Shown in pieces: positions 4,827 to 53,860 of a DNA stretch of 64,000 nucleotides (position 1 is its first letter; every line of letters begins with the position of its first letter). Under the pieces are notes generated by a model, which had not been told where the DNA came from, did not search any database, and saw only the letters and a program-made list of their open reading frames with translations. The DNA is from an uncultured Candidatus Saccharibacteria bacterium (GTDB lineage: Bacteria > Patescibacteriota > CALEFQ01 > G965231055): contig OZ246411.1 of the NCBI GenBank assembly GCA_965231055.1, positions 48,334 through 112,333 on the forward strand. The letters are read 5' to 3'. The position numbers and the translations under genes are program-made.

Positions 4827-6647
4827 CTAACGAAAATCGGCCATTTGCTTTTGAAGTAGCTCCATGAGCTTTGATATTTCCACACTGATTTCTTCAGCTC
4901 TTTGATTATTGCCTTTGGCTTCTACTACTCTGAGTTCGCCCTCTTTATCCTTTAACCATCTTCTTAAATGGTAAATATAAAGCTCACCAAGGCATCTCTT
5001 GATTTCTGGTTCAAACTGATCTTCAGGTATGTTTTCGTTTTCTATGACCAAAACAAGCTCACTGAGCATGTCTGCAAGTTTTTTGTCCTGAATAGCAACC
5101 ACATCCTTGAAGGCACCGAGATCAAATTGTCCTGTCCTATTATAAAATTCTTTTAGGTTTTCGTAAAGCCCTATATAACTCTCCGGCAAAAGCTTGATTT
5201 TCTCTTCTTCTACCGAATTCACGAGTTCAGGAAAAGACAATAAAAGCGCCAAAATTCTATTTTCAAGTTTATTTTTTCTTCCTAGCATTTTATCCCCGCG
5301 TGGAATAGCTATTACAGATTTTTTGGATTCCAATCTTGTGTATTTTGATGAATTTTTGTCTTTGCTAATTGCACCCAAAAGATCTCTCACAATAGATTCT
5401 TCTGTATCTATTTTTTCTGAAAGCGATTTGATGTAATGATCCTGTTCTATCTTGTCAGACATAAAACTCAAAAATTTCAATATTTCAGCAGCAGCTTTTT
5501 TCTTTTGAACGACGTCTTTGAGATTGGTTTTGGCGAGCACGCTGTCTATAATAAAATCTCCTACTGATTTTTTGGCTTTGAGAATTGCGAGCCATCTTTT
5601 TGGACTCTCTTTTATGATATCGGCTGGATCTTTTCCCATATCACTTATGCTTACCACTTTTACATTCATTCCCGCGACAAGAGCGATTTCTATTCCTCTT
5701 CTTGTTGCCTTGTCTCCTGCGATATCCATATCGAAAGCTAGAACCAAATTATTTGTATATCTTTTTACGAGATCTATTTGCTCGGTGGTAAATGCTGTGC
5801 CAGAAACTGATACCGTATTTTTTACGTCAGCCTGATGAGACATGATAACATCCGTATATCCTTCGACGATAATAGCAAAATCATATTTGCGTATATAATT
5901 TTTGGCTTTATCAAGTCCATAAAGCACTGCACTTTTGTTGTATATCGGAGTTGTGGGAGTGTTTACATATTTGGGACCTTCGAATTTGGGATCAGATTTT
6001 ATAAACTCCCTGCCCCCAAACCCCACAGTATCTCCATGAGAATCAAAAATCGGAAACATAATTCTTCCCCTAAACCTATCGTATATTCCTTTTTTATTTT
6101 TTCTGGGTAGCCCTAGCCCCACTTCTATGCAATCGCTTTCGTTGAAACCAGATGCGTTCATTTTTCTTGATAGTTCATCCCATCCGATAGGAGAAAAACC
6201 TATGTGAAACTCTGAAATTGATTTTTCGGTAATGCCCCTTTTGACAAGATAATCAAAAGCTTTTTTTCCTTCCTCTGTTTTGGTTATATTTTCTTCAAAA
6301 AAAGCCATAGCTCTTTGATTCATCACAAAAAGTCTTCTTCTGTGCTCATCTATTTTGAAACTTGTTTTCTTGATTTCTACTCCCGCCTTTGTCGCCAATA
6401 CTCTCATGGCTTCAGGAAAATCTATATTGTCCATTTTCATTACGAAAGTAAAAATATCTCCACCCTCTCCGCAACCAAAACAATGCCAGATTTGTTTTTC
6501 TGGACTCACAACAAGAGAAGGTGTTTTTTCATTATGAAAAGGACACCTAGCTTTGTAATTCACGCCGGCTTTTGAGAGCTGAATATAATCTCTAATAACA
6601 TCTACTATATCCAGTTTTGATTTGATTTCTTCTTTTTGATCTAGCAT
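4827..6647 (-). CDS. dnaG: DNA primase DnaG
   Basis: CHC2 zinc finger CPFHNEKTPSL..CFGCGEGGD; TOPRIM EGYTDV; classical dnaG-rpoD arrangement. Confidence 0.95.
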   Translation of the reverse strand: MLDQKEEIKSKLDIVDVIRDYIQLSKAGVNYKARCPFHNEKTPSLVVSPEKQIWHCFGCGEGGDIFTFVMKMDNIDFPEAMRVLATKAGVEIKKTSFKIDEHRRRLFVMNQRAMAFFEENITKTEEGKKAFDYLVKRGITEKSISEFHIGFSPIGWDELSRKMNASGFNESDCIEVGLGLPRKNKKGIYDRFRGRIMFPIFDSHGDTVGFGGREFIKSDPKFEGPKYVNTPTTPIYNKSAVLYGLDKAKNYIRKYDFAIIVEGYTDVIMSHQADVKNTVSVSGTAFTTEQIDLVKRYTNNLVLAFDMDIAGDKATRRGIEIALVAGMNVKVVSISDMGKDPADIIKESPKRWLAILKAKKSVGDFIIDSVLAKTNLKDVVQKKKAAAEILKFLSFMSDKIEQDHYIKSLSEKIDTEESIVRDLLGAISKDKNSSKYTRLESKKSVIAIPRGDKMLGRKNKLENRILALLLSFPELVNSVEEEKIKLLPESYIGLYENLKEFYNRTGQFDLGAFKDVVAIQDKKLADMLSELVLVIENENIPEDQFEPEIKRCLGELYIYHLRRWLKDKEGELRVVEAKGNNQRAEEISVEISKLMELLQKQMADFR

Positions 6648-6712
6648 GAGTATTCAGTATTAAGCATTCAGCGTTCAGTTGTGTTTGAATACTGATTACT
6701 GAAAACTGACTA
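6648..6712. repeat. AGTATTCAGT-type palindromic intergenic repeat R1
   Basis: words agtattcagtatt / tgaatactga / tactgaaaactga immediately 5' of dnaG start. Confidence 0.6.
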
Positions 6713-7261
6713 CTTTCTAATAACTACTATTTTTCCGTTCTCAATTTTTATAACTTTTGAGGGTTTTTTGGAAGATACGCGGCCAGAAATATAAAGGCCT
6801 ACTTTATCTCCAAAATACTCTTTTGCCTGCTTGATATTCATAGCTGGAGGCTCGCCAGATGAATTAACACTCGTAGAAACAAGCGGGCCAGTCTTCATTA
6901 GAAGTCTAGTGAGTGTTGGCTTTTTTGGCAAGCGAAATGCAATAGCATCATTACCTCTATGCAAATATTTGAACTTATTATTTTTACACGGCAAAATCAC
7001 ACTTATAGGCCCCGGCCATACTTTTTGAAGTAGTTTATTTTCAAACTCATCGAGCTTGATACCAAACAAATCAAGCTGATCAATGGAGCCAATTAAAACT
7101 ATAAACGGCTTTTTGAAATCCCTAGATTTTAGATTATAAATATCTTGAACTGCTTTTTTGTTCAATGCATCGGCAAAAATACCGTATATAGTATCAGACG
7201 GCATAACCACAAGTTTTCCTGTTTTAAGTTTTTCAATCACTTTAACCATAATCTGACTCAC
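6710..7261 (-). CDS. tsaC: L-threonylcarbamoyladenylate synthase TsaC/YrdC family
   Basis: YrdC/Sua5 fold motifs (PSDTIYG, KxR, LSTSVN..SG). Confidence 0.8.
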   Translation of the reverse strand: MSQIMVKVIEKLKTGKLVVMPSDTIYGIFADALNKKAVQDIYNLKSRDFKKPFIVLIGSIDQLDLFGIKLDEFENKLLQKVWPGPISVILPCKNNKFKYLHRGNDAIAFRLPKKPTLTRLLMKTGPLVSTSVNSSGEPPAMNIKQAKEYFGDKVGLYISGRVSSKKPSKVIKIENGKIVVIRK

Positions 7262-7283
7262 TCAAATATACCATATCCGGCTA

Positions 7284-7316
7284 AAAAAATGGGATTCGAA
7301 CCTAAGCTCGAATCCC
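7284..7316 (-). terminator. rho-independent terminator built on a tRNA T-arm-like hairpin
   Basis: gggattcgaacctaagctcgaatccc hairpin + T7 on minus strand; contains GGTTCGAATCCCAT. Confidence 0.6.
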
Positions 7317-7339
7317 AACAAAGAACACGCATCGCGATA

Positions 7340-7768
7340 TCACCACTTGATAGTTGCAAGTAATCTCCTGGTATCAATAGCGCTCTTTAAACTCTCTGTA
7401 GACATAGTTTCGTGCCTGTACAGAATCTTGGATTGAGTCTCATAATCGCTCCAAATGGTAAATTCGCAATCTTGATTCAATTCAAACTGTTCCTCGGAAC
7501 GAGCAACACCAAGACGAAGAATGATAGTTTTGTTCTCGCATTTGTAGTCAGCACGGATACGGTACTGACCAATCAAATCCCCCAAGGACACTTCAACCGA
7601 AACAAAACCCCTGATGTCGAAACCCACGCGTTTCAGAAGAGAAAAAAGTAAATCACGCGCAGGATCATCGCTATCAATAGAGATAAACGTGAGTTTTGAA
7701 TTCTTAAAGGTCCGTGGTTCTTGCTTTTGAGATTTGTTTTTCTTGGAATTTCTTAAAAAAACACCCAT
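7340..7768 (-). CDS. hypothetical protein
   Basis: 142-aa ORF, no recognisable motif. Confidence 0.4.
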   Translation of the reverse strand: MGVFLRNSKKNKSQKQEPRTFKNSKLTFISIDSDDPARDLLFSLLKRVGFDIRGFVSVEVSLGDLIGQYRIRADYKCENKTIILRLGVARSEEQFELNQDCEFTIWSDYETQSKILYRHETMSTESLKSAIDTRRLLATIKW

Positions 7769-7862
7769 AACACCTCCTTGTCTGTTAATTGGGCAATTTG
7801 CATACTAGCAGAAAATTAAAGCTAGTCAATATTGGATAAAAAGGACTCTCAAATTCAAACAT

Positions 7863-7890
7863 TGACTTTTAACAATAAAAATAAGATAAT
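7863..7890 (+). promoter_or_regulatory. sigma70-type promoter TTGACT-16-GATAAT
   Basis: 8 nt upstream of the ABC ATPase start. Confidence 0.45.
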
Positions 7891-7897
7891 TGTCTAC

Positions 7898-8815
7898 ATG
7901 AAAACTCAAATCAAAGTAAAAAATCTCGTAAAAAAGTACAAAGGACTCACTGCCGTTAATGATGTTTCATTTGACGTGCATGAAGGTGAGATTTTTGGAT
8001 TGCTGGGAGAAAATGGTGCTGGAAAAACCACCACAATGGAAATTATGGAAGGACTTAGGAAACCAACATCAGGAAGAGTTGAGATTCTTGGTAAAGAAAT
8101 TGCCAAACAATCAAAATCAATCAAGCAAAAAATAGGCGTACAGCTTCAGTCCTCTGCCTATTTTAGCCTTCTTACTCTCAAAGAAATTCTTGAACTTTTC
8201 GGTAGTTTTTACGAAACACAAAAGGATCCTGATGAACTTTTGAAAATGGTCGCACTCTCAGAAAAAGCCAATTCATATGTAAACAAATTGTCTGGTGGAC
8301 AAAAGCAAAGATTTTCTATAGTAGCAAGTTTAGTAAACGACCCTGAAATAATATTTTTGGATGAACCAACTACCGGACTAGATCCATTAGCTCGAAGAAA
8401 TCTTTGGAAACTTATATCGCAAATTAAATCTCTAGGAAAAACAATAATCCTCACCACTCACTACATGGAAGAAGCTGAGACACTCTGCGACAGAGTTGCT
8501 ATTATGGAAAAGGGTAAGCTTTTGCGAATAGGCAAAACTCATGAGCTCGTAAATGAAATGCCCTATCCTTACAAAGCCAGCATAGTACTAAACGAACAAA
8601 ATAAAGACAAAATAAATTTGTTTTCAAAGTTCGGTGAAGTACAGGAAAAACAAGGCAAGAAAAACTATTTCAGCATCAGAATAAAAAGTCAGAAAGATTT
8701 GGACGACGTAATGGTGCTTATTCAAAAAATAAAACCAGAGGACTTCAAGGTAAGTAAGGCGAGTTTGGAGGATTTATTTATTCTCCTCACGGGAAAAACT
8801 ATTTTGGATGATTAA
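7898..8815 (+). CDS. ABC transporter ATP-binding protein (ABC-2 type)
   Basis: Walker A GENGAGKTT, signature LSGGQKQR, Walker [14 protein letters not shown]-loop; start at MKTQIKVKNL. Confidence 0.9.
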   Translation: MKTQIKVKNLVKKYKGLTAVNDVSFDVHEGEIFGLLGENGAGKTTTMEIMEGLRKPTSGRVEILGKEIAKQSKSIKQKIGVQLQSSAYFSLLTLKEILELFGSFYETQKDPDELLKMVALSEKANSYVNKLSGGQKQRFSIVASLVNDPEIIFLDEPTTGLDPLARRNLWKLISQIKSLGKTIILTTHYMEEAETLCDRVAIMEKGKLLRIGKTHELVNEMPYPYKASIVLNEQNKDKINLFSKFGEVQEKQGKKNYFSIRIKSQKDLDDVMVLIQKIKPEDFKVSKASLEDLFILLTGKTILDD

Positions 8816-8831
8816 TTAATATTCACTGTCA

Positions 8832-8853
8832 CCTCTGCCTGTCGGTAGGCAAG
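8832..8853. repeat. 22-nt motif CCTCTGCCTGTCGGTAGGCAAG (18/22 identical to the insert in the tRNA-Asn pseudo-copy)
   Basis: direct comparison with 3036..3057. Confidence 0.4.
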
Positions 8854-8915
8854 CTGAACTTGTTTCAAGGTCTATGGAAAGGAGAGAAAATGAAAGTTAG
8901 AAACAAGGATCTTAA

Positions 8916-9325
8916 GTCGTCGTCTTCCCCGCGAATGCGGGGATCCAGACACCACGTATGACTAATTTTAGGAGGGATAAATGAATAAAAGCTATTATGT
9001 ATATATTTTAGCAAGTAAGCGTAATGGTACGCTCTATATTGGTATAACCAATGATTTAGCAAGAAGAGTGCTTGAGCATAAGGAAGGAAAAGGCTCTATA
9101 TTCACAAAAAAGCATAAAGTTAATATACTCGTATACTGTGAAACCCTATCAACTGCACATGATGCCATCTGTAGAGAAAAACAACTCAAGAAATGGAACT
9201 GAAGATGGAAACTAGAACTTATTGAGACACAAAATCCTTTCTGGAAAGATCTATCAAAAGAATACTTTGGATACTAAACCACGACGACTTCTGGGTCCCC
9301 AATCAAGTTGGGGATGACGACGGGA
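8916..9325 (+). mobile_element. GIY-YIG mini-element with hairpin-containing terminal inverted repeats
   Basis: left gtcgtcgtcttccccgcgaatgcgggga; right tccccaatcaagttggggatgacgacggg (inverted); inserted between ABC ATPase and permease. Confidence 0.6.
8981..9202 (+). pseudogene. GIY-YIG nuclease family protein, interrupted by in-frame TGA (family-typical C-terminus continues to 9277)
   Basis: YYVYILASKRNGTLYIGITNDLARRVLEH; after TGA the frame reads RWKLELIETQNPFWKDLSKEYFGY. Confidence 0.7.
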
Positions 9326-9426
9326 GCATAGGCCTTATCGTAATTAGATGGAATGACGACTGTTTCAAGAACTGTTCGCAAAAGAAAGACTCCTAGTTAA
9401 AAACAATAACAACATATTATAAATAT

Positions 9427-10512
9427 ATGCTAAAACTTTTACTATCAGACATAAAAATGGTCATAAGAAACAAACAGGCTCTTTTCTGGAGCTTGATGTT
9501 TCCATTGGTTTTTACTGTTATTTTTGGATTCTTTTTTGCCAAATCAGATAGTTTTAGCGGAGGCAAAATTGGACTTATCAATAATTCAGATTCAGAAATA
9601 GCTATAAACCTAGAAAAAACACTGGATGAATCTGATACTTTTGAAGTTCAAAAACTTTCAAATGAAGACGAGATCAAAAACTTGATTTCAAAATCAAGCA
9701 TTGGAGCTGGAGTGGTGATCCCAGAAAGCTTTGGAGACATGAACCCAGAAAGTCCAAAACAGATTAAAATAGTATTTGATCCAGCCAACGCACAGTCCGT
9801 ACTCTCAATACAAGGATTTCTAAATAGCTATCTCACCCAAGTTAACTATCAAATTCAACAAGCTACTCCAATATTCTCCATAATCGAAGAAAAAACAGCA
9901 GGAGGAGAACTAAACTATTTCGATTTCGTGCTCGCAGGACTTCTTGGAATGGCCCTGATGAATAGCTCCATCCAAGGAATCGCTATCTCCATGGCAAAAT
10001 ACAGAGAAGACCAAATACTAAAACGCATAGGCACTACACCACTTAGAGCTTGGAAATTTGTAGCTTCGGAAGTTCTATCAAGATTGGTTTTAAATTTTAT
10101 ACAAATAGCGGTGGTTCTAATGGTGGGCTACTACGGATTTGGAGCACACATATACGGCAATCTCGGAATTATATTTTTGGTTGCACTAATAGGTGCAGCG
10201 CTTTTCCAGTCGATAGGATTTGCAATAGCCAGCGTATCAAAAACTACCCAAGCCGCAGAGGGTATGTCGGTTAGCGTCACTATCCCAATGATGTTTTTAT
10301 CAGGAGTATTTTTCCCAATAGACCAACTCCCTACCTGGCTAGGACTTTTTGTAAAATATCTCCCCCTCACTCCTCTACTCAAACTCACAAGGCAAGTAAT
10401 GCTCGACGGAGAATCTATGTTTACGAATCCTATAAATATAACCATCATCGGATGCTGGATAGCTTTTGCACTCACCGTTTCAATAATGCGATTTAAACTT
10501 TCGGAAGAATAA
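9427..10512 (+). CDS. ABC-2 family transporter permease
   Basis: 6 TM helices, ABC-2 architecture, downstream of the ATPase. Confidence 0.8.
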   Translation: MLKLLLSDIKMVIRNKQALFWSLMFPLVFTVIFGFFFAKSDSFSGGKIGLINNSDSEIAINLEKTLDESDTFEVQKLSNEDEIKNLISKSSIGAGVVIPESFGDMNPESPKQIKIVFDPANAQSVLSIQGFLNSYLTQVNYQIQQATPIFSIIEEKTAGGELNYFDFVLAGLLGMALMNSSIQGIAISMAKYREDQILKRIGTTPLRAWKFVASEVLSRLVLNFIQIAVVLMVGYYGFGAHIYGNLGIIFLVALIGAALFQSIGFAIASVSKTTQAAEGMSVSVTIPMMFLSGVFFPIDQLPTWLGLFVKYLPLTPLLKLTRQVMLDGESMFTNPINITIIGCWIAFALTVSIMRFKLSEE

Positions 10513-10542
10513 AAAATTATCAAGATTTTCAAATTAAAAAAT

Positions 10543-10568
10543 CCAGACAAAGCTGTCTGGTTTTTTTC
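10543..10568 (+). terminator. rho-independent terminator of ABC operon
   Basis: ccagacaaagctgtctgg + T8. Confidence 0.75.
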
Positions 10569-10578
10569 AAAAATAAAA

Positions 10579-10605
10579 GGCCGTGGTATAAAACACCAGC
10601 GGCCC
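10579..10605 (-). terminator. rho-independent terminator of 10633..11139
   Basis: ggccgtggt...accagcggcc hairpin + T-run on minus. Confidence 0.5.
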
Positions 10606-10632
10606 GATATAGAACATTTTGAACGGTAAGGA

Positions 10633-11139
10633 TCAAGTTTCTGTTTTTTTTCTTTCTGGGGAGCCATTGCAAACCAGTTGCCGTAAACAGTATTCTTTAC
10701 AACTATCACAATGACTCATGTGCACAACTGCATTTATTAGTCTCAGAATTATACCAGCATCGTAATCTGCGCCCTGAATAACAAACTGGCCAAATGCATG
10801 TTTGTGATTATCACATACATGATTCATGATTTCTTCTCTTTTGAGTGTTTCAGCCCACTGCCTTTCTCTCCAATACTCTGTACGAGAAAATACAAATGTA
10901 AGAATTGCGGAAAAACAGCACAACGCAATTAAAACAAGAGAGGCTATTGGCCCAAAGAGACCCCATTCATGCAATGCTATAGACACCACACATGCCACCA
11001 AACAACCGACGCAAGCTGATAACCAATCCGAAGATTTCATCTTAAACCCCTTTTTTGAAAGAGCCCCAATGGCTGTTAATGAAACAAAATGCATCATATT
11101 TCCTGACAATAAACTAATACAAGGATTCCAAAAAGTCAA
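10633..11139 (-). CDS. membrane protein with C-terminal Cys/His cluster
   Basis: TM segments plus HxCDNHKH...HCDSCKEYC. Confidence 0.4.
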   Translation of the reverse strand: MTFWNPCISLLSGNMMHFVSLTAIGALSKKGFKMKSSDWLSACVGCLVACVVSIALHEWGLFGPIASLVLIALCCFSAILTFVFSRTEYWRERQWAETLKREEIMNHVCDNHKHAFGQFVIQGADYDAGIILRLINAVVHMSHCDSCKEYCLRQLVCNGSPERKKTET

Positions 11140-11517
11140 AAAAATGGATACACATCACAAATGATTATATGAGAATTGAGGCAGTATTATATTTTACAAT
11201 TAAAAACAACCTCGCGGTCAATGACCACGAGGTATAAAAATGTGCTAACAAAAGCGACACCTATTGGCTCTCGATCTTCGTTTGCGGGATGCCTTTCTAT
11301 AGTTTCCCTGAAAATCCTCACCAATGGATTTCTCGGTTCCAGATTTTTGTCCCTTCATAAAAAGTACCACCGTAATTATCGAAAGGCCGATAACCACAAG
11401 CTCATAACCATCACCAAACACAGGATGAAAAATCAAAATAAGAAAAATAAGAGACATGATAAAGAAAATTCTAATCATCGCAATCTCCTCCTTATTAGTA
11501 AAGAACAATTAAGAAAA

Positions 11518-12513
11518 TTATCTACCGACAACCAATCTACCACAAGCCCCTGATACATCACGTCCAAATCTAAACCTTTCCACGGTATTTATATCTGCGC
11601 GCTCCAAAATTTCTTTAAAAGTCTCGGCTCGATTCTCTGATGAAGGTTTGAAGTTTTCTACCTGATTACACAAAATCAAATTTACTACGTACGGATACTT
11701 CAATTGCTTTAGCAAAACCACGAGTTCTTTGGCGTTTTCTATGCGATCATTTATACCATCAATCAAAACATATTCAATCATAACTTTTCTATGAGTTGCT
11801 TCCATGTAATCCGAAATGGCTTTGAGTATTTCTTTGAGCGAATTCTTTTTGGCAAAAGGAATGAGACTAGATCTAAGTTCATCATTTGGAGCATGCATAG
11901 AAAATGCCAGATTGTATTGGTCTTTTTCCTCGGTAAGCTTCTTTATTCCATCTACAACTCCCACAGTAGAAAAAGAAATCTTGCGCGCACTTATTTCAAA
12001 ATATTTCTGTATAAATTTAGCCGCCAATATCACTTCGTCATAATTTAAAAACGGTTCCCCCATTCCCATGAAAGTAACGTTTGTGACTCTTGCATTGTCT
12101 TTTTTAAGCATCCTTTCAAAAATCAAAACCTGATCCACAATCTCCATATAAGTCAAACTGCGCTTCAAGCCCATGGAACCAGTAGCGCAAAACTTGCATC
12201 CGAGTGCGCACCCCACCTGAGAAGAAACGCACACTGTATTTCTATTATCCTTGTGCCTCATCAAAACCGCTTCAATTTTTAATCCATCATCAAGAGTAAT
12301 CAATACTTTTTTGGTATTTTTATCTGCCGAGTTACTGACTTTGTAATTTATTTCCAATGAAAAATCTTTTTTGAGTTTTTCTCTGAGTTCTTTGGAGAGA
12401 TTTGTCGCCATGTCCCAATTTTCTATCGCCTTGGCATAAATCCACTCAAAAACCTGCCTCTCTCGAAACGCAGGTTCGCCTTTCAATAAATTTTTGAGTT
12501 TTTCTATTTGCAT
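11518..12513 (-). CDS. rlmN: 23S rRNA (adenine2503-C2)-methyltransferase RlmN (radical SAM)
   Basis: CVSSQVGCALGCKFCATG radical-SAM motif; RlmN N-terminal QIEKLK..ERQVFEW. Confidence 0.85.
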   Translation of the reverse strand: MQIEKLKNLLKGEPAFRERQVFEWIYAKAIENWDMATNLSKELREKLKKDFSLEINYKVSNSADKNTKKVLITLDDGLKIEAVLMRHKDNRNTVCVSSQVGCALGCKFCATGSMGLKRSLTYMEIVDQVLIFERMLKKDNARVTNVTFMGMGEPFLNYDEVILAAKFIQKYFEISARKISFSTVGVVDGIKKLTEEKDQYNLAFSMHAPNDELRSSLIPFAKKNSLKEILKAISDYMEATHRKVMIEYVLIDGINDRIENAKELVVLLKQLKYPYVVNLILCNQVENFKPSSENRAETFKEILERADINTVERFRFGRDVSGACGRLVVGR

Positions 12514-12548
12514 ATATGAAATTCCAATCAAGCATACCAAAACCACAT

Positions 12549-12580
12549 AAAATTAAAAGCTATCCCACGAAGATAGCTTT
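12549..12580 (-). terminator. rho-independent terminator
   Basis: aaagctatcccacgaagatagcttt 9-bp stem + T-run on minus. Confidence 0.6.
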
Positions 12581-12610
12581 TGAAGAGCAATTTTGATTGT
12601 ACAAAATGAA

Positions 12611-12901
12611 TTAGTCACAATTAATCCAATTATTGCAACTGGAACAAATGTCAGAATGAGTTTCGTCAATAGTTTTGCCTTCTTCCCGTGCAATGCGTGC
12701 ATTTCTGCGAAATTCCCTGCATTCGCTTCTTATCCAAAATTGGAAAAGCGCTGCAAGGATCAATCCCGGTAAAACCGCAAAACCCATCCAAATTCCTCCC
12801 AAAAAAAACAAATCGATCAACCACGAAACAATACCAGCTACGAAAGCGAGAAAGAAACCACCCCAAAAAGTCGAGATCTTGTTTCTTATTGCATCCAGCA
12901 T
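12611..12901 (-). CDS. small membrane protein with C-terminal Cys-rich tail
   Basis: 2 TM + CREF..CSSCNNWINC. Confidence 0.4.
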   Translation of the reverse strand: MLDAIRNKISTFWGGFFLAFVAGIVSWLIDLFFLGGIWMGFAVLPGLILAALFQFWIRSECREFRRNARIAREEGKTIDETHSDICSSCNNWINCD

Positions 12902-12931
12902 ACAATTTCCTTCTTTCCGCAGATACTCTGC

Positions 12932-13234
12932 TCAGTATATTGTTTGATGAGAAAACCACTTTCTACACCTATTGCATCTTGCCAGGTGATTTGGATCGAT
13001 TGATTTTCCGAGACCACAATAGGCCTTCCTATAACTCTTGCATTTCGAAAAATTAACTATCAGCCAAGCAACATAAACTAGCGCAAAGATGGGAGCGAGA
13101 AGAAGAGATTCTCTTGGCAAAAAAGTAACTTCAGAAAAAAATGCAAAAGGAGTAAGCACTATGCAAATTACGAACAAGGTGAAAAAGATTTTTCTCATAA
13201 AAACCTCCTGTGAAAGAACTATTACCGCAAACAC
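12932..13234 (-). CDS. small membrane protein with C-terminal Cys-rich tail (paralogue-like of 12611..12901)
   Basis: 2 TM + CKSYRKAYCG..CNRCRKW. Confidence 0.4.
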   Translation of the reverse strand: MFAVIVLSQEVFMRKIFFTLFVICIVLTPFAFFSEVTFLPRESLLLAPIFALVYVAWLIVNFSKCKSYRKAYCGLGKSIDPNHLARCNRCRKWFSHQTIY

Positions 13235-13326
13235 ACCATACGATCACACTAGCCCAACGCCATAAAAATTGCAAGTTTTGGCATAAAAAAAACAGTAAAT
13301 TATTACTGCCCTTTCTAATAATAACA

Positions 13327-13899
13327 TTATTGTTTTGCTGTTCCCCTAGCTAGCACTTTATCAAAAATAGCACATTCTTTGCTTGGCACATCAGCAAGTG
13401 CGATAGTGATATTTGAATTACTAAAATCAATTTCTTTTTTCTGTATTTTGGCCAAAGTTATCGCGGTAGCCCTGTGATGACCTTCAATGCAGGCTATCTG
13501 ATTCGTATCATTTCGCCTCAATCCTATAAACTCCGTATCAAATGGCATAGCATTCATAATTTTTAACACCCCATCGTTTTTTGCATACTTTTCATATTTT
13601 TTAAGAATAGTGAGAAGCTCAGCAAATGTGGTTTGGTTTTTCACGGCCAATCCCTCTTGCCAACCATTAAATGGCCCAATTAGCATTTCCGGAACTTCTT
13701 TTGAGGGATCAGTAAATTTAAAAATCTGCCATTTTCTATTGGGACATCCCAATTGATCTGCAGTAAAACCTCGCCAAGATTTCCAATCAGGCCAACCTTT
13801 GATCTCGGTCGCACATTTAATCCAGCCAGGATTACTGGCTTCTCTTTCTTCCCAGCCCTTAAAAATCTGATCCCAGGTTGTTGATTTGATCAATTTCAT
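13327..13899 (-). CDS. hypothetical protein with ParB/sulfiredoxin-like GHHR motif
   Basis: CIEGHHRATAITLAK resembles the ParB/Srx G-x-H-R-x-x-A motif; tentative. Confidence 0.35.
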   Translation of the reverse strand: MKLIKSTTWDQIFKGWEEREASNPGWIKCATEIKGWPDWKSWRGFTADQLGCPNRKWQIFKFTDPSKEVPEMLIGPFNGWQEGLAVKNQTTFAELLTILKKYEKYAKNDGVLKIMNAMPFDTEFIGLRRNDTNQIACIEGHHRATAITLAKIQKKEIDFSNSNITIALADVPSKECAIFDKVLARGTAKQ

Positions 13900-13950
13900 T
13901 AGTTGAAAACTAAGTTTACAGGCCGAAGCATCATGAAGTGATGCGAAGGC

Positions 13951-13964
13951 CTGGTCGGGGCGAG
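13951..13964 (-). repeat. 14-nt direct repeat of the tRNA-Pro 3' end (ctggtcggggcgag), att-like
   Basis: identical to 14753..14766; adjacent 35-nt hairpin 13919..13953. Confidence 0.45.
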
Positions 13965-14218
13965 TGAACGAAATCCGAACTTTTTTGTGGGAACATCTGG
14001 ATGATTTCCATGCGCCGGATTTCTCTTAAACAAGCTGATTTCATGTAAGTAATAATAGCAGAACAGACAAAATCGACAAGTCTTGACTTGCTTCTCATGA
14101 GAATAAATTTTGTGGAAAAGAAAAAGAGGTTCACCATCTCAGTGGCAAGCCTCTCTTCAACTATCATACTCGAAGATTGCTCAAACAGAAGATTATTCTT
14201 TTTTGTCAGCAACTTTTT

Positions 14219-14464
14219 TTAAGTTGTTCCCATCTTTCTTCTACTGAGAGGATTCCGAATTCCTCCAATTGAGAAGAAATTATTGAAAAATGCTTCTCCT
14301 TCTCCGAGGGTTTCGAAATCTGATGTCAGTATGCGTGTTTCTAACTCCAGTGTTATTGCCTGACAATGAGCGCAACTGTGAGCATGCTCAGACATAATAT
14401 CCATTTGCTCAGGAGTAGGTTCTGTTTCTTGTTCCAATAGCTTTTTATACTCTTCACAAGTCAT
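14219..14464 (-). CDS. zf-HC2-like putative anti-sigma factor zinc-finger protein
   Basis: MTCEEYKKLLEQ...HAHSCAHCQ matches C-x(n)-H-x3-C-x2-C. Confidence 0.4.
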   Translation of the reverse strand: MTCEEYKKLLEQETEPTPEQMDIMSEHAHSCAHCQAITLELETRILTSDFETLGEGEAFFNNFFSIGGIRNPLSRRKMGTT

Positions 14465-14586
14465 AATTAGTCCTCCCAGCTGATATGTTCAGCTTTTTGA
14501 ATTATTAAATGAACCATATCTTTACTATGCTTAGACAATTACATTTTTTACTAATTTTGTCAATATCTTAAAGGACAAGAACCCTG

Positions 14587-14602
14587 ATGGGATTCGAACC
14601 CC
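14587..14602 (-). other. tRNA 3'-end-like fragment (GGGGTTCGAATCCCAT)
   Basis: T-arm-like 16-mer without 5' half; same 14-mer as at 7289..7302. Confidence 0.4.
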
Positions 14603-14753
14603 ACAATTTACCTAACCCAAGCGAAAAACCGGCTTTTGACTGGTTTTTTTCATTTTCGTTCGAACTTTTCCTTCTGGATTTTCGGATCTTTATTGAGCTT
14701 AGGTTAGCCAAAAATGGAAAGTTGTAGGTATTAAAACAACAACCTGTTGCATC

Positions 14754-14831
14754 TGGTCGGGGCGAGAGGATTTGAACCTCCGGTCTCATGCACCCCATGC
14801 ATGCACTTTAGGCCAGCTAAGCTACGCCCCG
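14754..14831 (-). tRNA. tRNA-Pro (anticodon GGG)
   Basis: acceptor CGGGGCG/CGCCCCG, anticodon stem CATGC/GCATG loop ATGGGGT, T-arm GGAGGTTCAAATCCTCT, CCA. Confidence 0.9.
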
Positions 14832-14884
14832 ATAATAATATTCGCTTGTTATAAAAATTTTCACACAAAACCTAATCAACTACA

Positions 14885-14933
14885 CCTTAGGCCAGACCCG
14901 AGGGGTCCCCCTTGGGGCTAAGCTACCCCCCGA
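14885..14933 (-). pseudogene. truncated tRNA-Pro 5' pseudo-copy with 22-nt GC-rich palindromic insert in the D-loop
   Basis: CGGGGGGTAGCTTAG + ccccaagggggacccctcgggt + CTGGCCTAAGG, then diverges. Confidence 0.55.
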
Positions 14934-14999
14934 AAAGCTAAAGACATAAGTCACTAGCTAAATAGAATATACCTCAAATAAAACAAAAATCAACCCATA

Positions 15000-16682
15000 T
15001 TACTTTGATTTTTTGTTTTTAGTACCTTGTTTGATCGCATTTTCTACAAGTCCCAAAAATAATGGATGAGGATTTAGGAATTGAGATTTGAGTTCTGGGT
15101 GATACTGAGTTGCTATGAAATAAGGATGCTTTGATGGATCAAGCTCGATAGCTTCCACCAAGAGCCCGTCGGGACTTACTCCCGCGATATTAAGCCCTGC
15201 TTTCGCAAGAGAATCTCTGTAAGCCAAATTGAACTCGTAGCGATGCCTGTGTCTCTCCGCAACCAGTGCGGATTTTTTAAATATCGGGTTTTTGTATTTA
15301 TTGTAAACCGAATACATGAGACTGCTTTTGTCTATTTTGCATGGCCAAGCTCCGAGCCTAATAGTTCCACCATAATGCTTTTTTGCAATGAGTTCTTTTT
15401 GACTATTCATCAAATGAATCACCGGATGAGGAGTTTTTGGATCAACTTCTTCTGAATTCGCCTTTTTGAGTCCTACCACATTTCTAGCATATTCTATAAC
15501 CGCCATCTGCATACCAAAACAAAGTCCGAGATACGGAATTTTGTTTTCTCTGGCAATTCTCACTGCTTCAAGTTTTCCTTCAACTCCGCGTGATCCCCAA
15601 CCTTGTGGAATAATAATAGCATCAGAATTCAAAAGTTCTTTTTGTTTGGATTTATCTTTTTCAAATCCATCAGCGATAAACCATTTGATCTCAGGAATTA
15701 CTCCAAGCTGCCAAGAGGCGTGCTTTATGGCCTCAATCACGGAGACATAAGAATCTTTTACACTAAAATCTCCGCTTTTGTAATACTTACCTACTATGGA
15801 AATATTTACTTTTTTTGTAAGCTCTTTAATTTTATTAGTCCTACTTTTCCATTCGTCAAAAAGCCTGCCTCTTTTGGCTTTTTTAATTCCCAAACTTTCC
15901 AATATTAGTTTGCCAACCTTTTCTTTTTCAAAATTTACGGGCACATCATAAATACTTTTTACATCGGGCGCCGAAATAACTCTCTTGCTATTCAAGTTAC
16001 AAAAGTACGCGAGCTTTTTTCTTCTTATCTCATCGAGAAGATGAGTTCCCCTAGCTACGATAAAATCAGGAAAGATTCCGTAGTTATTTACCATTCTTAC
16101 TGAAATCTGAGTGGGCTTGGTTTTCATTTCCCCAAGAGTAGAGGGAATAGGAAGATATGACACATGAACATGCACTACATCATCTGGATTTGCTTGTTTC
16201 AAAATCCTGTTCGCCTCAAGGAAAAGTGCATTTTGATATTCACCCACAGTTCCACCAATTTCAAAAATAACCACTTCTGCCCTGTGACGCTTTAGTGCAG
16301 AACCAATTCTATTTATAATCTCCCCTGGAACATGTGGCACCACTTCCACGCATTTGCCATCATACCCCAAAGCTCTTTCTCTGTTTATAACTGATTGATA
16401 GACAGAGCCAGTGGTCATGTAGTTTTCCTTGGTCAAAAGATCACCGATAAAGCGCTCATAATGCCCCAAATCCATATCAGTTTCAAGTCCATCCTCAAGC
16501 ACAAAAGTCTCTCCATGTTCCATGGGATTCATGGTACCTGCATCCACATTTACATATGGATCTGCCTTGATAGAAGTAACTTTGACTCCATAGCTTTTCA
16601 GTATGAAGCCGAGTGAGGCTGCGGTAACACCCTTGCCTACCCCAGAAATCACTCCCCCTGATACGAAAATGTATTTTTTCAT
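15000..16682 (-). CDS. pyrG: CTP synthase PyrG
   Basis: N-terminal synthetase GGVISGVGKG, C-terminal GATase GLCFGMQ, H/E triad region. Confidence 0.95.
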   Translation of the reverse strand: MKKYIFVSGGVISGVGKGVTAASLGFILKSYGVKVTSIKADPYVNVDAGTMNPMEHGETFVLEDGLETDMDLGHYERFIGDLLTKENYMTTGSVYQSVINRERALGYDGKCVEVVPHVPGEIINRIGSALKRHRAEVVIFEIGGTVGEYQNALFLEANRILKQANPDDVVHVHVSYLPIPSTLGEMKTKPTQISVRMVNNYGIFPDFIVARGTHLLDEIRRKKLAYFCNLNSKRVISAPDVKSIYDVPVNFEKEKVGKLILESLGIKKAKRGRLFDEWKSRTNKIKELTKKVNISIVGKYYKSGDFSVKDSYVSVIEAIKHASWQLGVIPEIKWFIADGFEKDKSKQKELLNSDAIIIPQGWGSRGVEGKLEAVRIARENKIPYLGLCFGMQMAVIEYARNVVGLKKANSEEVDPKTPHPVIHLMNSQKELIAKKHYGGTIRLGAWPCKIDKSSLMYSVYNKYKNPIFKKSALVAERHRHRYEFNLAYRDSLAKAGLNIAGVSPDGLLVEAIELDPSKHPYFIATQYHPELKSQFLNPHPLFLGLVENAIKQGTKNKKSK

Positions 16683-52957: not shown

Positions 52958-52990
52958 CCCCCTTGGTATTAGGACAAAATAGGAGGAATT

Positions 52991-53860
52991 ATGGGTTCTT
53001 TAAAAAATAAATTTGGAAGTGATATCGAAAACCCTATGTTTTATCGCGAGACCATGTTACCCTTTTGCAAAAAGAATCGCACCATCAGTATCCAAAATCA
53101 AGAAATGAGGAAGCTTCAAAAAAGATTTGCAAAATATATTAGGCAAATCAAAAGTTGGAATGAAGAAAAGTCTGTTGTCGTAAATTTGATACTCCATTCA
53201 TATCAAGGAAGATTTTTCTATCTCACAGATATTTGCGATGCCTTTTCATCTGTAAAGCTAGATCGATTTTTGGGAGCTTTTTCAAGGGCGAGCCATAATC
53301 ATTGGAGTGATGCCAAAGAATTTCTGCAAATCTTTTTTTCCGAAAACGGAGAACTAATTACCGGAGGATCAGCATCTCCCGCAATCTTTAGCCTGTACTG
53401 TCACTTATTGCTAGATGTCGAAATCAGAAACGTAATTGAAAATCAACCAATACTGTACACGAGATATGTTGACAACCTAACATTTTCATCACCCAAAAGA
53501 ATTGGAGCTAAGACAAGAAAAGAAATAAGAAGAGCTATGGCAAAAGTTGGGTTTAGACCAAATCATGGTAAATCCAAAGTCCTCGACATAAAAAAGGGAC
53601 CAATAAATATCATGGGACTAAATATGGATGACTCGAGACAGGTATTTTTCCGCAGAGAAATGCTGGCAAAAATTCACGGACTCCTACATTCATACAAGTC
53701 TAGAAAAGATGTCCCAATCGAGGTGTTACTTGGTTATTACGGCATATTCAAAGATCTTTATATAAACCACAGCCACCGCGCAAAAACAACATCACTTTCA
53801 GAAAAAATCAAAGCTCAATTTCAAGAACTATTTTTACAAACACGAGGGGATTATTTTTGA
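52991..53860 (+). CDS. retron-type reverse transcriptase (YXDD box = YVDN)
   Basis: RT motifs KKNRTISIQNQEMRKLQ (1), NLILH (NAxxH), FYLTDICDAF (A), GGSASPAIFSLY (B'), YTRYVDNLTFSS (C), IMGLNM (VTG-like); SD aggagg. Confidence 0.75.
   Translation: MGSLKNKFGSDIENPMFYRETMLPFCKKNRTISIQNQEMRKLQKRFAKYIRQIKSWNEEKSVVVNLILHSYQGRFFYLTDICDAFSSVKLDRFLGAFSRASHNHWSDAKEFLQIFFSENGELITGGSASPAIFSLYCHLLLDVEIRNVIENQPILYTRYVDNLTFSSPKRIGAKTRKEIRRAMAKVGFRPNHGKSKVLDIKKGPINIMGLNMDDSRQVFFRREMLAKIHGLLHSYKSRKDVPIEVLLGYYGIFKDLYINHSHRAKTTSLSEKIKAQFQELFLQTRGDYF

Follow-up and report, generated by a model that had tools for sequence, protein, structure and literature searches.

A GIY-YIG nuclease gene flanked by inverted hairpins

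We analyzed a 64,000-nucleotide stretch of DNA (the window; contig OZ246411.1, positions 48,334 to 112,333, assembly GCA_965231055.1) from an uncultured Candidatus Saccharibacteria bacterium, in which two neighboring ABC transporter genes, encoding an ATPase and a permease, are separated by a short GIY-YIG nuclease gene with a small hairpin on either side (Table 1). The best explanation for this arrangement overall, to which we assign a probability of roughly 80%, is that an SRM-ssn-SRM unit, consisting of a gene of the Ssn nuclease family and the hairpin motifs that go by the names SRM, NTS-like or CGTC-type REP, was inserted between the transporter genes and that the nuclease gene was later inactivated by a nonsense mutation. 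An initial annotation, made from the letters of the window, had already placed a GIY-YIG gene in the gap between the ATPase (ending at 8815) and the permease (starting at 9427) and had described inverted repeats with GC hairpins on both of its sides; we recovered the gene as well as both hairpins, at 8921-8948 and 9291-9322.

The Pfam GIY-YIG model PF01541 matches the frame with E = 2e-16 over residues 5-77, and no other domain was found. The ATG start at 8981 has AGGAGG ahead of it. Taken over its 98 codons, the frame shares 60-71% identity with proteins of about 95 amino acids (aa), which number in the thousands; the homologs measure 92-100 aa. The 73-aa product that ends at the interruption is on record in NCBI as P0001. 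SsnA, as described by Chenal et al. 2025 (Nat Commun 16:2388, PMC11893778), is a 94-aa single-domain GIY-YIG protein (CDD cd10448), and substitutions Y6A, Y17A and E64A abolish its cleavage activity. Residues Y8, Y19 and E66 of the present frame are spaced by 11 and 47 residues, as are catalytic Y6, Y17 and E64 of Neisseria meningitidis SsnA, a match of spacing. Every homolog has Y8 and Y19, and conservation of E66 reaches at least 90%. NCBIfam holds no model specific to this nuclease family.

The outer arms of the two hairpins, CGTCGTCTTCCCC and GGGGATGACGACG, form inverted repeats that are 92% complementary. On the top strand, the hairpin cores read TCCCCGC-GAAT-GCGGGGA at 8926-8943 and TCCCCAA-TCAAG-TTGGGGA at 9296-9314, and these are the only two matches to TCCCC-N(4-14)-GGGGA in the 64 kb, where 0.17 would be expected. 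Similarly, the SRM pattern of Chenal et al. (HGTCWY N0-2 YYVSBRH N0-5 WNVSBRG N0-2 RNCYNB) matches the window once, on the forward strand at the left hairpin, compared with a mean of 0.07 in dinucleotide shuffles. The left hairpin represents a tetraloop form and the right one a pentaloop CTTGA form, the latter also found beside homologs at loci L003, L009, L014 and L026 of the survey reported below. As single-stranded DNA the left hairpin is predicted to fold with -11 kcal/mol (z = -2.6) and the right one with -7.3 kcal/mol. From its domain, residue spacing and hairpins, we assign the locus with high but not complete confidence to the SRM-ssn-SRM units of the Ssn family.

Two further hairpin-like sequences are found in the outer parts of the insert. 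The first, on the side of the ATPase gene, is a weak candidate that does not match the SRM pattern, and the second, on the opposite side, retains the head and 5' stem of a further SRM and gave no predicted fold (Table 1). Searches of the 64-kb window for additional copies, using the inverted-repeat arm with up to 3 mismatches, the hairpin pattern and a six-frame GIY-YIG motif, returned none.

Some smaller observations concern the same sequences. The segment AAGTCGTCGT, comprising the head of the left hairpin and its presumed cleavage region at 8914-8923, recurs as a perfect inverted copy inside the unit at 9281-9290, past the stop codon and ahead of the right hairpin's tail. A 23-codon open reading frame (ORF), MKVRNKDLKSSSSPRMRGSRHHV, at 8891-8961 on the forward strand, reads through the left hairpin and has a Shine-Dalgarno-like GGAGAG. 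It is probably an artefact, like the hairpin-translating N- or C-terminal extensions of database homologs P0013, P0047 and P0119.

Table 1. Positions within the 64-kb window of the nuclease gene, its hairpins and the neighboring features.
Feature	Position	Strand	Basis
ABC transporter ATPase, 305 aa, intact; upstream gene of the interrupted pair	7898..8815	+	Pfam ABC_tran, E = 8e-33
Octamer ATGATTAA, left copy; in orthologs the 8-nt overlap holding permease start and ATPase stop	8805..8812	+	junction comparison
Inserted segment, 611 bp, absent from orthologous ATPase/permease junctions	8816..9426	.	ortholog comparison
Tentative degenerate SRM-like hairpin: head TGTCAC, then TGCCTG-TCGG-TAGGCA	8827..8851	+	fold -6.8 kcal/mol, z = -2.0; weak
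Left SRM / CGTC-type REP, head away from the gene: CGTC-T-TCCCCGC-GAAT-GCGGGGA-TCCAG	8921..8948	+	SRM pattern, fold
ssn-like GIY-YIG frame, 98 codons, interrupted at codon 74; product of 73 aa (8981-9202)	8981..9277	+	PF01541
In-frame TGA at an invariant Arg position	9200..9202	+	alignment with homologs
Right SRM-like hairpin, head away from the gene: CGTCGTCA-TCCCCAA-CTTGA-TTGGGGA-CCCAG	9291..9322	-	repeats, pattern searches
Remnant of a further SRM: bottom strand GTCGTCATTCC (head and 5' stem), lacking the 3' stem	9343..9361	-	repeat analysis
ABC-2 permease, 361 aa, intact; downstream gene of the interrupted pair	9427..10512	+	Pfam ABC2_membrane_3, E = 1e-40
Octamer ATGCTAAA, present permease start; imperfect (6/8) second copy of the junction octamer	9427..9434	+	junction comparison

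Hairpins accompany homologous genes in many phyla

A scan of one genome per species yielded more than 578 homologous loci, 80 of which were kept for analysis of their flanks. These 80 loci span Proteobacteria, Bacteroidota, Ignavibacteriota, Planctomycetota, Omnitrophota, Chloroflexota, Patescibacteria and other phyla. In the homolog flanks, a hairpin of the form tGTCAT-TCCCGC-GAAA-GCGGGA-ATCCAG is found upstream of the start codon at a distance of a few to about 40 nt, with its reverse complement just past the stop codon. We then counted hairpins with a detector demanding a GTC[AG][TC] head and a perfect stem of at least 6 bp. Hairpins with the head pointing outward were present upstream at 52 of the 80 loci, downstream at 64 and on both sides at 49, compared with 1.4 upstream and 2.4 downstream in shuffled flanks. 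Stem sequences vary between loci with pairing kept at 7 of 8 stem positions, although the stem alignment was preselected for paired stems, which makes the percentage paired circular and leaves only the variety of pair types informative. The suggestion that the hairpins belong to the gene is thus upheld by head-out hairpins flanking homologs at most of the 80 loci. In the published survey, ssnA was the gene most consistently flanked by the hairpin motifs, with at least one motif at 71% of homologs and motifs on both sides at 42% (PMC11893778). Viral carriage was rare, being detected at only 19 loci among 2.9 million viral contigs.

One of the surveyed loci, L056 (2587-4766; chromosome OZ253546.1 of a metagenome-assembled genome (MAG) of Poriferihabitaceae), carries a dense array of repeats of about 107-120 nt around two ssn copies. 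Its repeat landscape is far more expanded than that of the window.

The unit interrupts a conserved gene overlap

Both transporter genes appear intact. The exact 305-aa ATPase product is on record in NCBI and Logan, and its orthologs measure 305-315 aa; translation most likely starts at ATG 7898, to which the recorded product and all orthologs correspond, rather than at TTG 7832, which would give the longest ORF. The permease aligns to its orthologs across 100% of its own length, and the nearest of these, 57-61% identical, are Patescibacteria/Berkelbacteria-like. In five of five loci from the four nearest orthologs (L082, L083, L087, L088 and L089), the ATPase gene runs 8 nt into the permease gene, the shared octamer being ATGATTAA, ATGTTTAA or GTGATTAA. 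Because these orthologs have an 8-nt overlap where the window has 611 bp, the block 8816-9426 is an insertion relative to them. The octamer at the present permease start is followed by ACTTTT, the same continuation as in the orthologs. Taken together, the junction comparison supports arrival of the block by insertion, and the overlap octamer is now present in an imperfect (6/8) second copy. The empty site is defined here at the level of orthologs and not of strains, the nearest permease ortholog being 61% identical, and a metagenome scan for close relatives recovered a single distant locus of 29% identity.

The initial annotation had proposed that an element of about 410 bp was inserted inside an ABC transporter operon. 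The five empty ortholog junctions agree with the insertion, and the size fits the hairpin-gene-hairpin core, whereas the inserted DNA as a whole is longer, at 611 bp. The G+C content of the insert, 0.35-0.40, is near the window value of 0.37, which suggests long residence. We also considered TGTTTCAAG, present at 8861 and 9362, as a possible target duplication. This pair was rejected, given that a 9-nt direct repeat is expected by chance in 600 nt of AT-rich DNA; its asymmetric placement relative to the hairpins was likewise counted against it.

Independent support for the structure of the locus comes from Logan assemblies of SRR10912415 and SRR10912416, which match window positions 4898-8992 and 9278-16512. 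As the match is at 100% identity, both hairpins and both junctions are confirmed. The Logan contigs (L084, L085 and L081) end 12 nt into the ORF and resume at the first base past its stop codon. With 31-mers, breaks at these points imply that the interval of approximately 8963-9307 shares k-mers with other DNA in the sample, which could be a second near-identical copy or another allele.

A possible mechanism and the question of mobility

SsnA binds its motif only as single-stranded DNA and in one orientation only, and cuts a few nt upstream of it; Ssn homologs of other genera cut beside their own motif, and in N. meningitidis SsnA lowers transformation by motif-carrying DNA (PMC11893778). By analogy, an Ssn protein encoded at the present locus would bind the hairpin on single-stranded DNA in one orientation, with cleavage a few nt to the 5' side of the GTC head. 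With both heads facing outward, the predicted cuts fall immediately left of 8921 (top strand) and immediately right of 9322 (bottom strand). The comparison with orthologs shows that the block was inserted at a junction that is normally an 8-nt gene overlap, with both transporter genes left intact. A single-base change has since probably made a TGA out of an invariant Arg codon, which was most likely AGA. The locus is best interpreted as a resident, host-adapted Ssn unit in early decay.

Within-genome paralogs offer a view of the boundaries of such units. In one pair (L013; 403 nt, 85% identical), similarity ends 8 and 11 nt outside the hairpin heads, and in a second pair from a single MAG (L032 and L033; 363 nt, 81% identical), it ends 3 and 1 nt outside the heads. 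These ends fit a discrete duplicative unit bounded near the Ssn cut sites. No target duplication was found in either pair. Elsewhere, ssn units occupy orthologous positions in two Bradyrhizobium loci (L039 and L050) and two Sphingomonadales loci (L004 and L022) from different species, with flanks 80-94% identical, and their orthologous placement therefore points to vertical inheritance in these lineages rather than to fresh insertion.

These observations bear on the proposal, present in the initial annotation, that the element is a transposon with terminal inverted repeats. In its fuller form this would be an autonomous transposon resembling an insertion sequence (IS), in which, by analogy with IS200/IS605 and RAYT/REP systems, the GIY-YIG protein acts as the transposase and the hairpins are the ends recognised on single-stranded DNA. 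Such a reading overlaps our best explanation and is compatible with it, and we regard it as possible but on balance doubtful. It would account for the insertion into an otherwise conserved 8-nt overlap with an imperfect octamer duplication, for the within-genome paralogs delimited by hairpin heads, for 60-70% identical homologs across unrelated phyla and for the Logan contigs that break at both ORF ends, as they would at repeated sequence. The IS-like architecture was likewise pointed out by Chenal et al., who compared NTS-ssnA-NTS to an insertion sequence, to IS200/IS605 and to RAYT/REP, mobility not being demonstrated there (PMC11893778).

Several findings pull in the other direction. The window holds no second copy of the unit and no extra hairpin, the duplicated octamer is some 100 nt away from the heads of the hairpins, the paralog pairs are free of target duplications, the units at orthologous positions in Bradyrhizobium and Sphingomonadales species indicate vertical inheritance, and homologs are rare in viral contigs. 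GIY-YIG nucleases are hydrolytic and are not known to have any joining or strand-transfer activity, so any movement would need host functions, and Ssn units are not known to move. The parts of the transposon proposal that stand are the insertion and the tie between hairpins and gene; transposition itself is a hypothesis. Calling the hairpins terminal inverted repeats of a transposon exceeds the evidence, the window holding no second copy. In the Ssn system such hairpins are the nuclease's recognition sites on single-stranded DNA.

We nevertheless offer, as a tentative and rather improbable extension, the idea that SRM-ssn-SRM is self-mobilising and constitutes a new mechanistic class, in which hairpin-guided mobility of single-stranded DNA is driven by a GIY-YIG nuclease and not by a HUH transposase. 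If this were true, the window would preserve one insertion into an 8-nt gene overlap that is now decaying, and the CGTC-type REPs of many phyla would be non-autonomous derivatives of SRM-ssn-SRM units.

A premature stop codon in the nuclease gene

As the initial annotation had stated, the nuclease ORF stops at the TGA at 9200-9202 and the same frame then continues for 24 codons, RWKLELIETQNPFWKDLSKEYFGY. We place its end at a TAA at 9275-9277. The TGA aligns with an Arg (R74) that is invariant in 67 homologs (23 homologs in a first alignment), and the family invariants downstream of it, W76, K77, E82, N85, P86, W88 and D90, are all kept. Since the neighboring Arg codons of the nuclease gene are AGA, a single A-to-T change (AGA to TGA) would be the simplest origin. 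We made an AlphaFold model of a 70%-identical homolog (mean predicted local distance difference test score, pLDDT, of 90.7), in which the residue equivalent to R74 opens a helix at 73-83. Judging from this model, the 73-aa product would lack the last two helices. Nine invariant residues are lost with them, and the truncated nuclease is most likely inactive.

Next, the genetic code of the organism was considered. Read under code 11, the window contains 57 ORFs with 150 aa or more, and TGA terminates 10 of these. Among the TGA-ending genes with clear Pfam matches are those encoding a radical SAM/DUF4070 protein, a reverse transcriptase and a UDG-family protein, and because such Pfam-matched genes end in TGA, this codon is a stop in this organism. 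The window reads as standard code and does not qualify for the TGA-reassigned codes (tables 4 and 25). That the standard code is used elsewhere, including by the reverse transcriptase gene, had been noted before and is borne out by these counts. The initial annotation had left the choice between a very recent nonsense mutation and recoding; standard code, an invariant Arg and kept downstream residues together make a recent nonsense mutation, or a base error, far likelier than recoding. The reverse transcriptase mentioned above is a stand-alone ORF of 295 aa (52973-53860, forward strand; Pfam RVT_1, E = 3.5e-10).

We consider it fairly likely that the TGA is a true, recent nonsense mutation, with the remaining probability on the TGA reflecting uncertainty over the family call itself. 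An unlikely alternative is that the TGA is not real, arising from a base-calling or assembly error or from a minority allele, and that the full 98-aa nuclease is made. The 24 codons past the TGA are intact with every family invariant conserved, no independent contig between 8992 and 9278 confirms the base, and the contig breaks could reflect allelic heterogeneity, all of which would suit an unreal TGA. The deposited assembly, on the other hand, gives exactly the 73-aa product, and no near-identical 98-aa protein was found among 5.8 billion clusters, the next match being 71% identical. A single substitution is also an unusual type of error in polished assemblies.

Decoding of the TGA to yield the complete protein, whether by read-through, by insertion of selenocysteine or under another genetic code, is very improbable. 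The conserved downstream frame speaks for it, but code 11 is the only one under which the window divides well into genes, and TGA terminates genes that have Pfam domains. At the aligned position every homolog has Arg and not the Trp, Gly or Cys/Sec of known TGA reassignments, and no RNA family, SECIS included, was detected in 8600-9650.

Strength of the interpretation and its meaning

The readings that take the gene for a homing endonuclease in a group I intron, or the inverted repeats for chance, are effectively refuted. Similarity to NCBIfam endonucleases of group I introns is weak (E = 3e-4) and falls far short of the cut-off. No Rfam family, group I and group II introns included, matches 8600-9650, the unit is intergenic, and the recurrence of the hairpins around homologs at the 80 loci is far above chance. 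Promoter-like and terminator-like sites were no more frequent than in shuffled sequence.

Returning to the inserted and since inactivated SRM-ssn-SRM unit, a number of observations weigh against it. In the right hairpin, a head, a stem of 7 bp, a loop and the CCAG tail can all be recognised, but the stem is closed by A/T and falls outside the strict SRM pattern. There are two hairpins in 64 kb, without the repeat expansion of species in which a role of Ssn has been demonstrated. The insert exceeds the hairpin-gene-hairpin core (8921-9322) by about 200 bp, and its outer flanks of about 100 bp have no match in the other loci or elsewhere in the window. The solved structures closest in fold to the homolog model are the UPF0213 proteins 1zg2 and 1ywl, at about 30% identity; the Slx1 nuclease domain is also among the nearest solved folds, and all of these are GIY-YIG. 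Finally, the TGA falls in the stretch between 8992, where the Logan contigs end, and 9278, where they resume, and is therefore outside the independent assemblies.

Considered alone, the locus adds one more copy, probably dead, to a system that was published in 2025. What gives it value is the question left by Chenal et al. of whether NTS-ssnA-NTS units are or were mobile. The ortholog-level insertion and the paralog ends, 1-12 nt outside the heads and near the Ssn cut, make the mobility hypothesis testable on defined substrates. Moreover, our observations link the CGTC-type REPs, described in 2013 as lacking a dedicated enzyme, to a candidate enzyme. The premature stop illustrates decay of such a unit in a small-genome bacterium without hairpin expansion.

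Comparison with known systems

We compared the locus with four groups of known systems. The UPF0213/YhbQ proteins (PDB 1ywl, EF2693, and 1zg2, BH0048) and the Slx1 nuclease domain share the fold and core motifs of the nuclease, but are only about 30% identical to it, lack the C-terminal WKxxLIExxNPxWxDL and have no known association with SRM hairpins.

REP/RAYT systems (REPtrons) and IS200/IS605 elements resemble the unit in architecture, with a small nuclease gene between inverted hairpins that are recognised on single-stranded DNA. In both cases cleavage falls a short distance from the foot of the hairpin, and the Ssn paralog pairs are likewise without clear target duplication. In contrast to these systems, the enzyme of the window is GIY-YIG by sequence and fold and not HUH/Y1, a covalent intermediate or strand transfer is not known for GIY-YIG enzymes, and Ssn units are not known to be mobile.

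The third group is formed by the "CGTC-tagged REPs" defined by Di Nocera, De Gregorio and Rocco 2013 (BMC Genomics 14:522, PMC3733652), which have a CGTC or TGTC head, a stem of 8-9 bp, a loop of 4-5 nt and a CCA tail, include Neisseria dRS3 and Rickettsia RPE-4 and RPE-6, and according to their authors "apparently lack a dedicated transposase". Both window hairpins have the CGTC head, the stem, a 4- or 5-nt loop and the CCA tail. They form a head-to-head pair, the commonest arrangement of that family, and its two partners differ in stem and loop (a 'heterodimer'). They differ from CGTC-tagged REPs in their 7-bp stems with a mismatched outer pair, compared with 8-9 bp starting with A-T, and in repetitiveness, as the window holds two copies and one half-copy in 64 kb and the REPs number tens to thousands per genome. 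Whereas no dedicated enzyme was found for the REPs (PMC3733652), the window hairpins bracket an Ssn gene.

The fourth group is the Ssn family itself. Differences are that the window frame is broken by a TGA at an invariant Arg, that the right hairpin is a pentaloop variant outside the strict pattern, that there are two hairpins in 64 kb and that the host is a small-genome, Patescibacteria-like bacterium, the permease orthologs being named Berkelbacteria or Patescibacteria. Unlike the published units, the present one is demonstrably an insertion inside an operon. Shared with the family are the single-domain GIY-YIG protein of about 95 aa, the Tyr/Tyr/Glu spacing, the inverted hairpins on both sides with GTC head and CCAG tail, the right one being SRM-like, and a left hairpin that fits the published SRM search pattern. 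In summary, the locus is an apparently decaying Ssn member, of a kind of system already published in 2025, and not a new kind of element.

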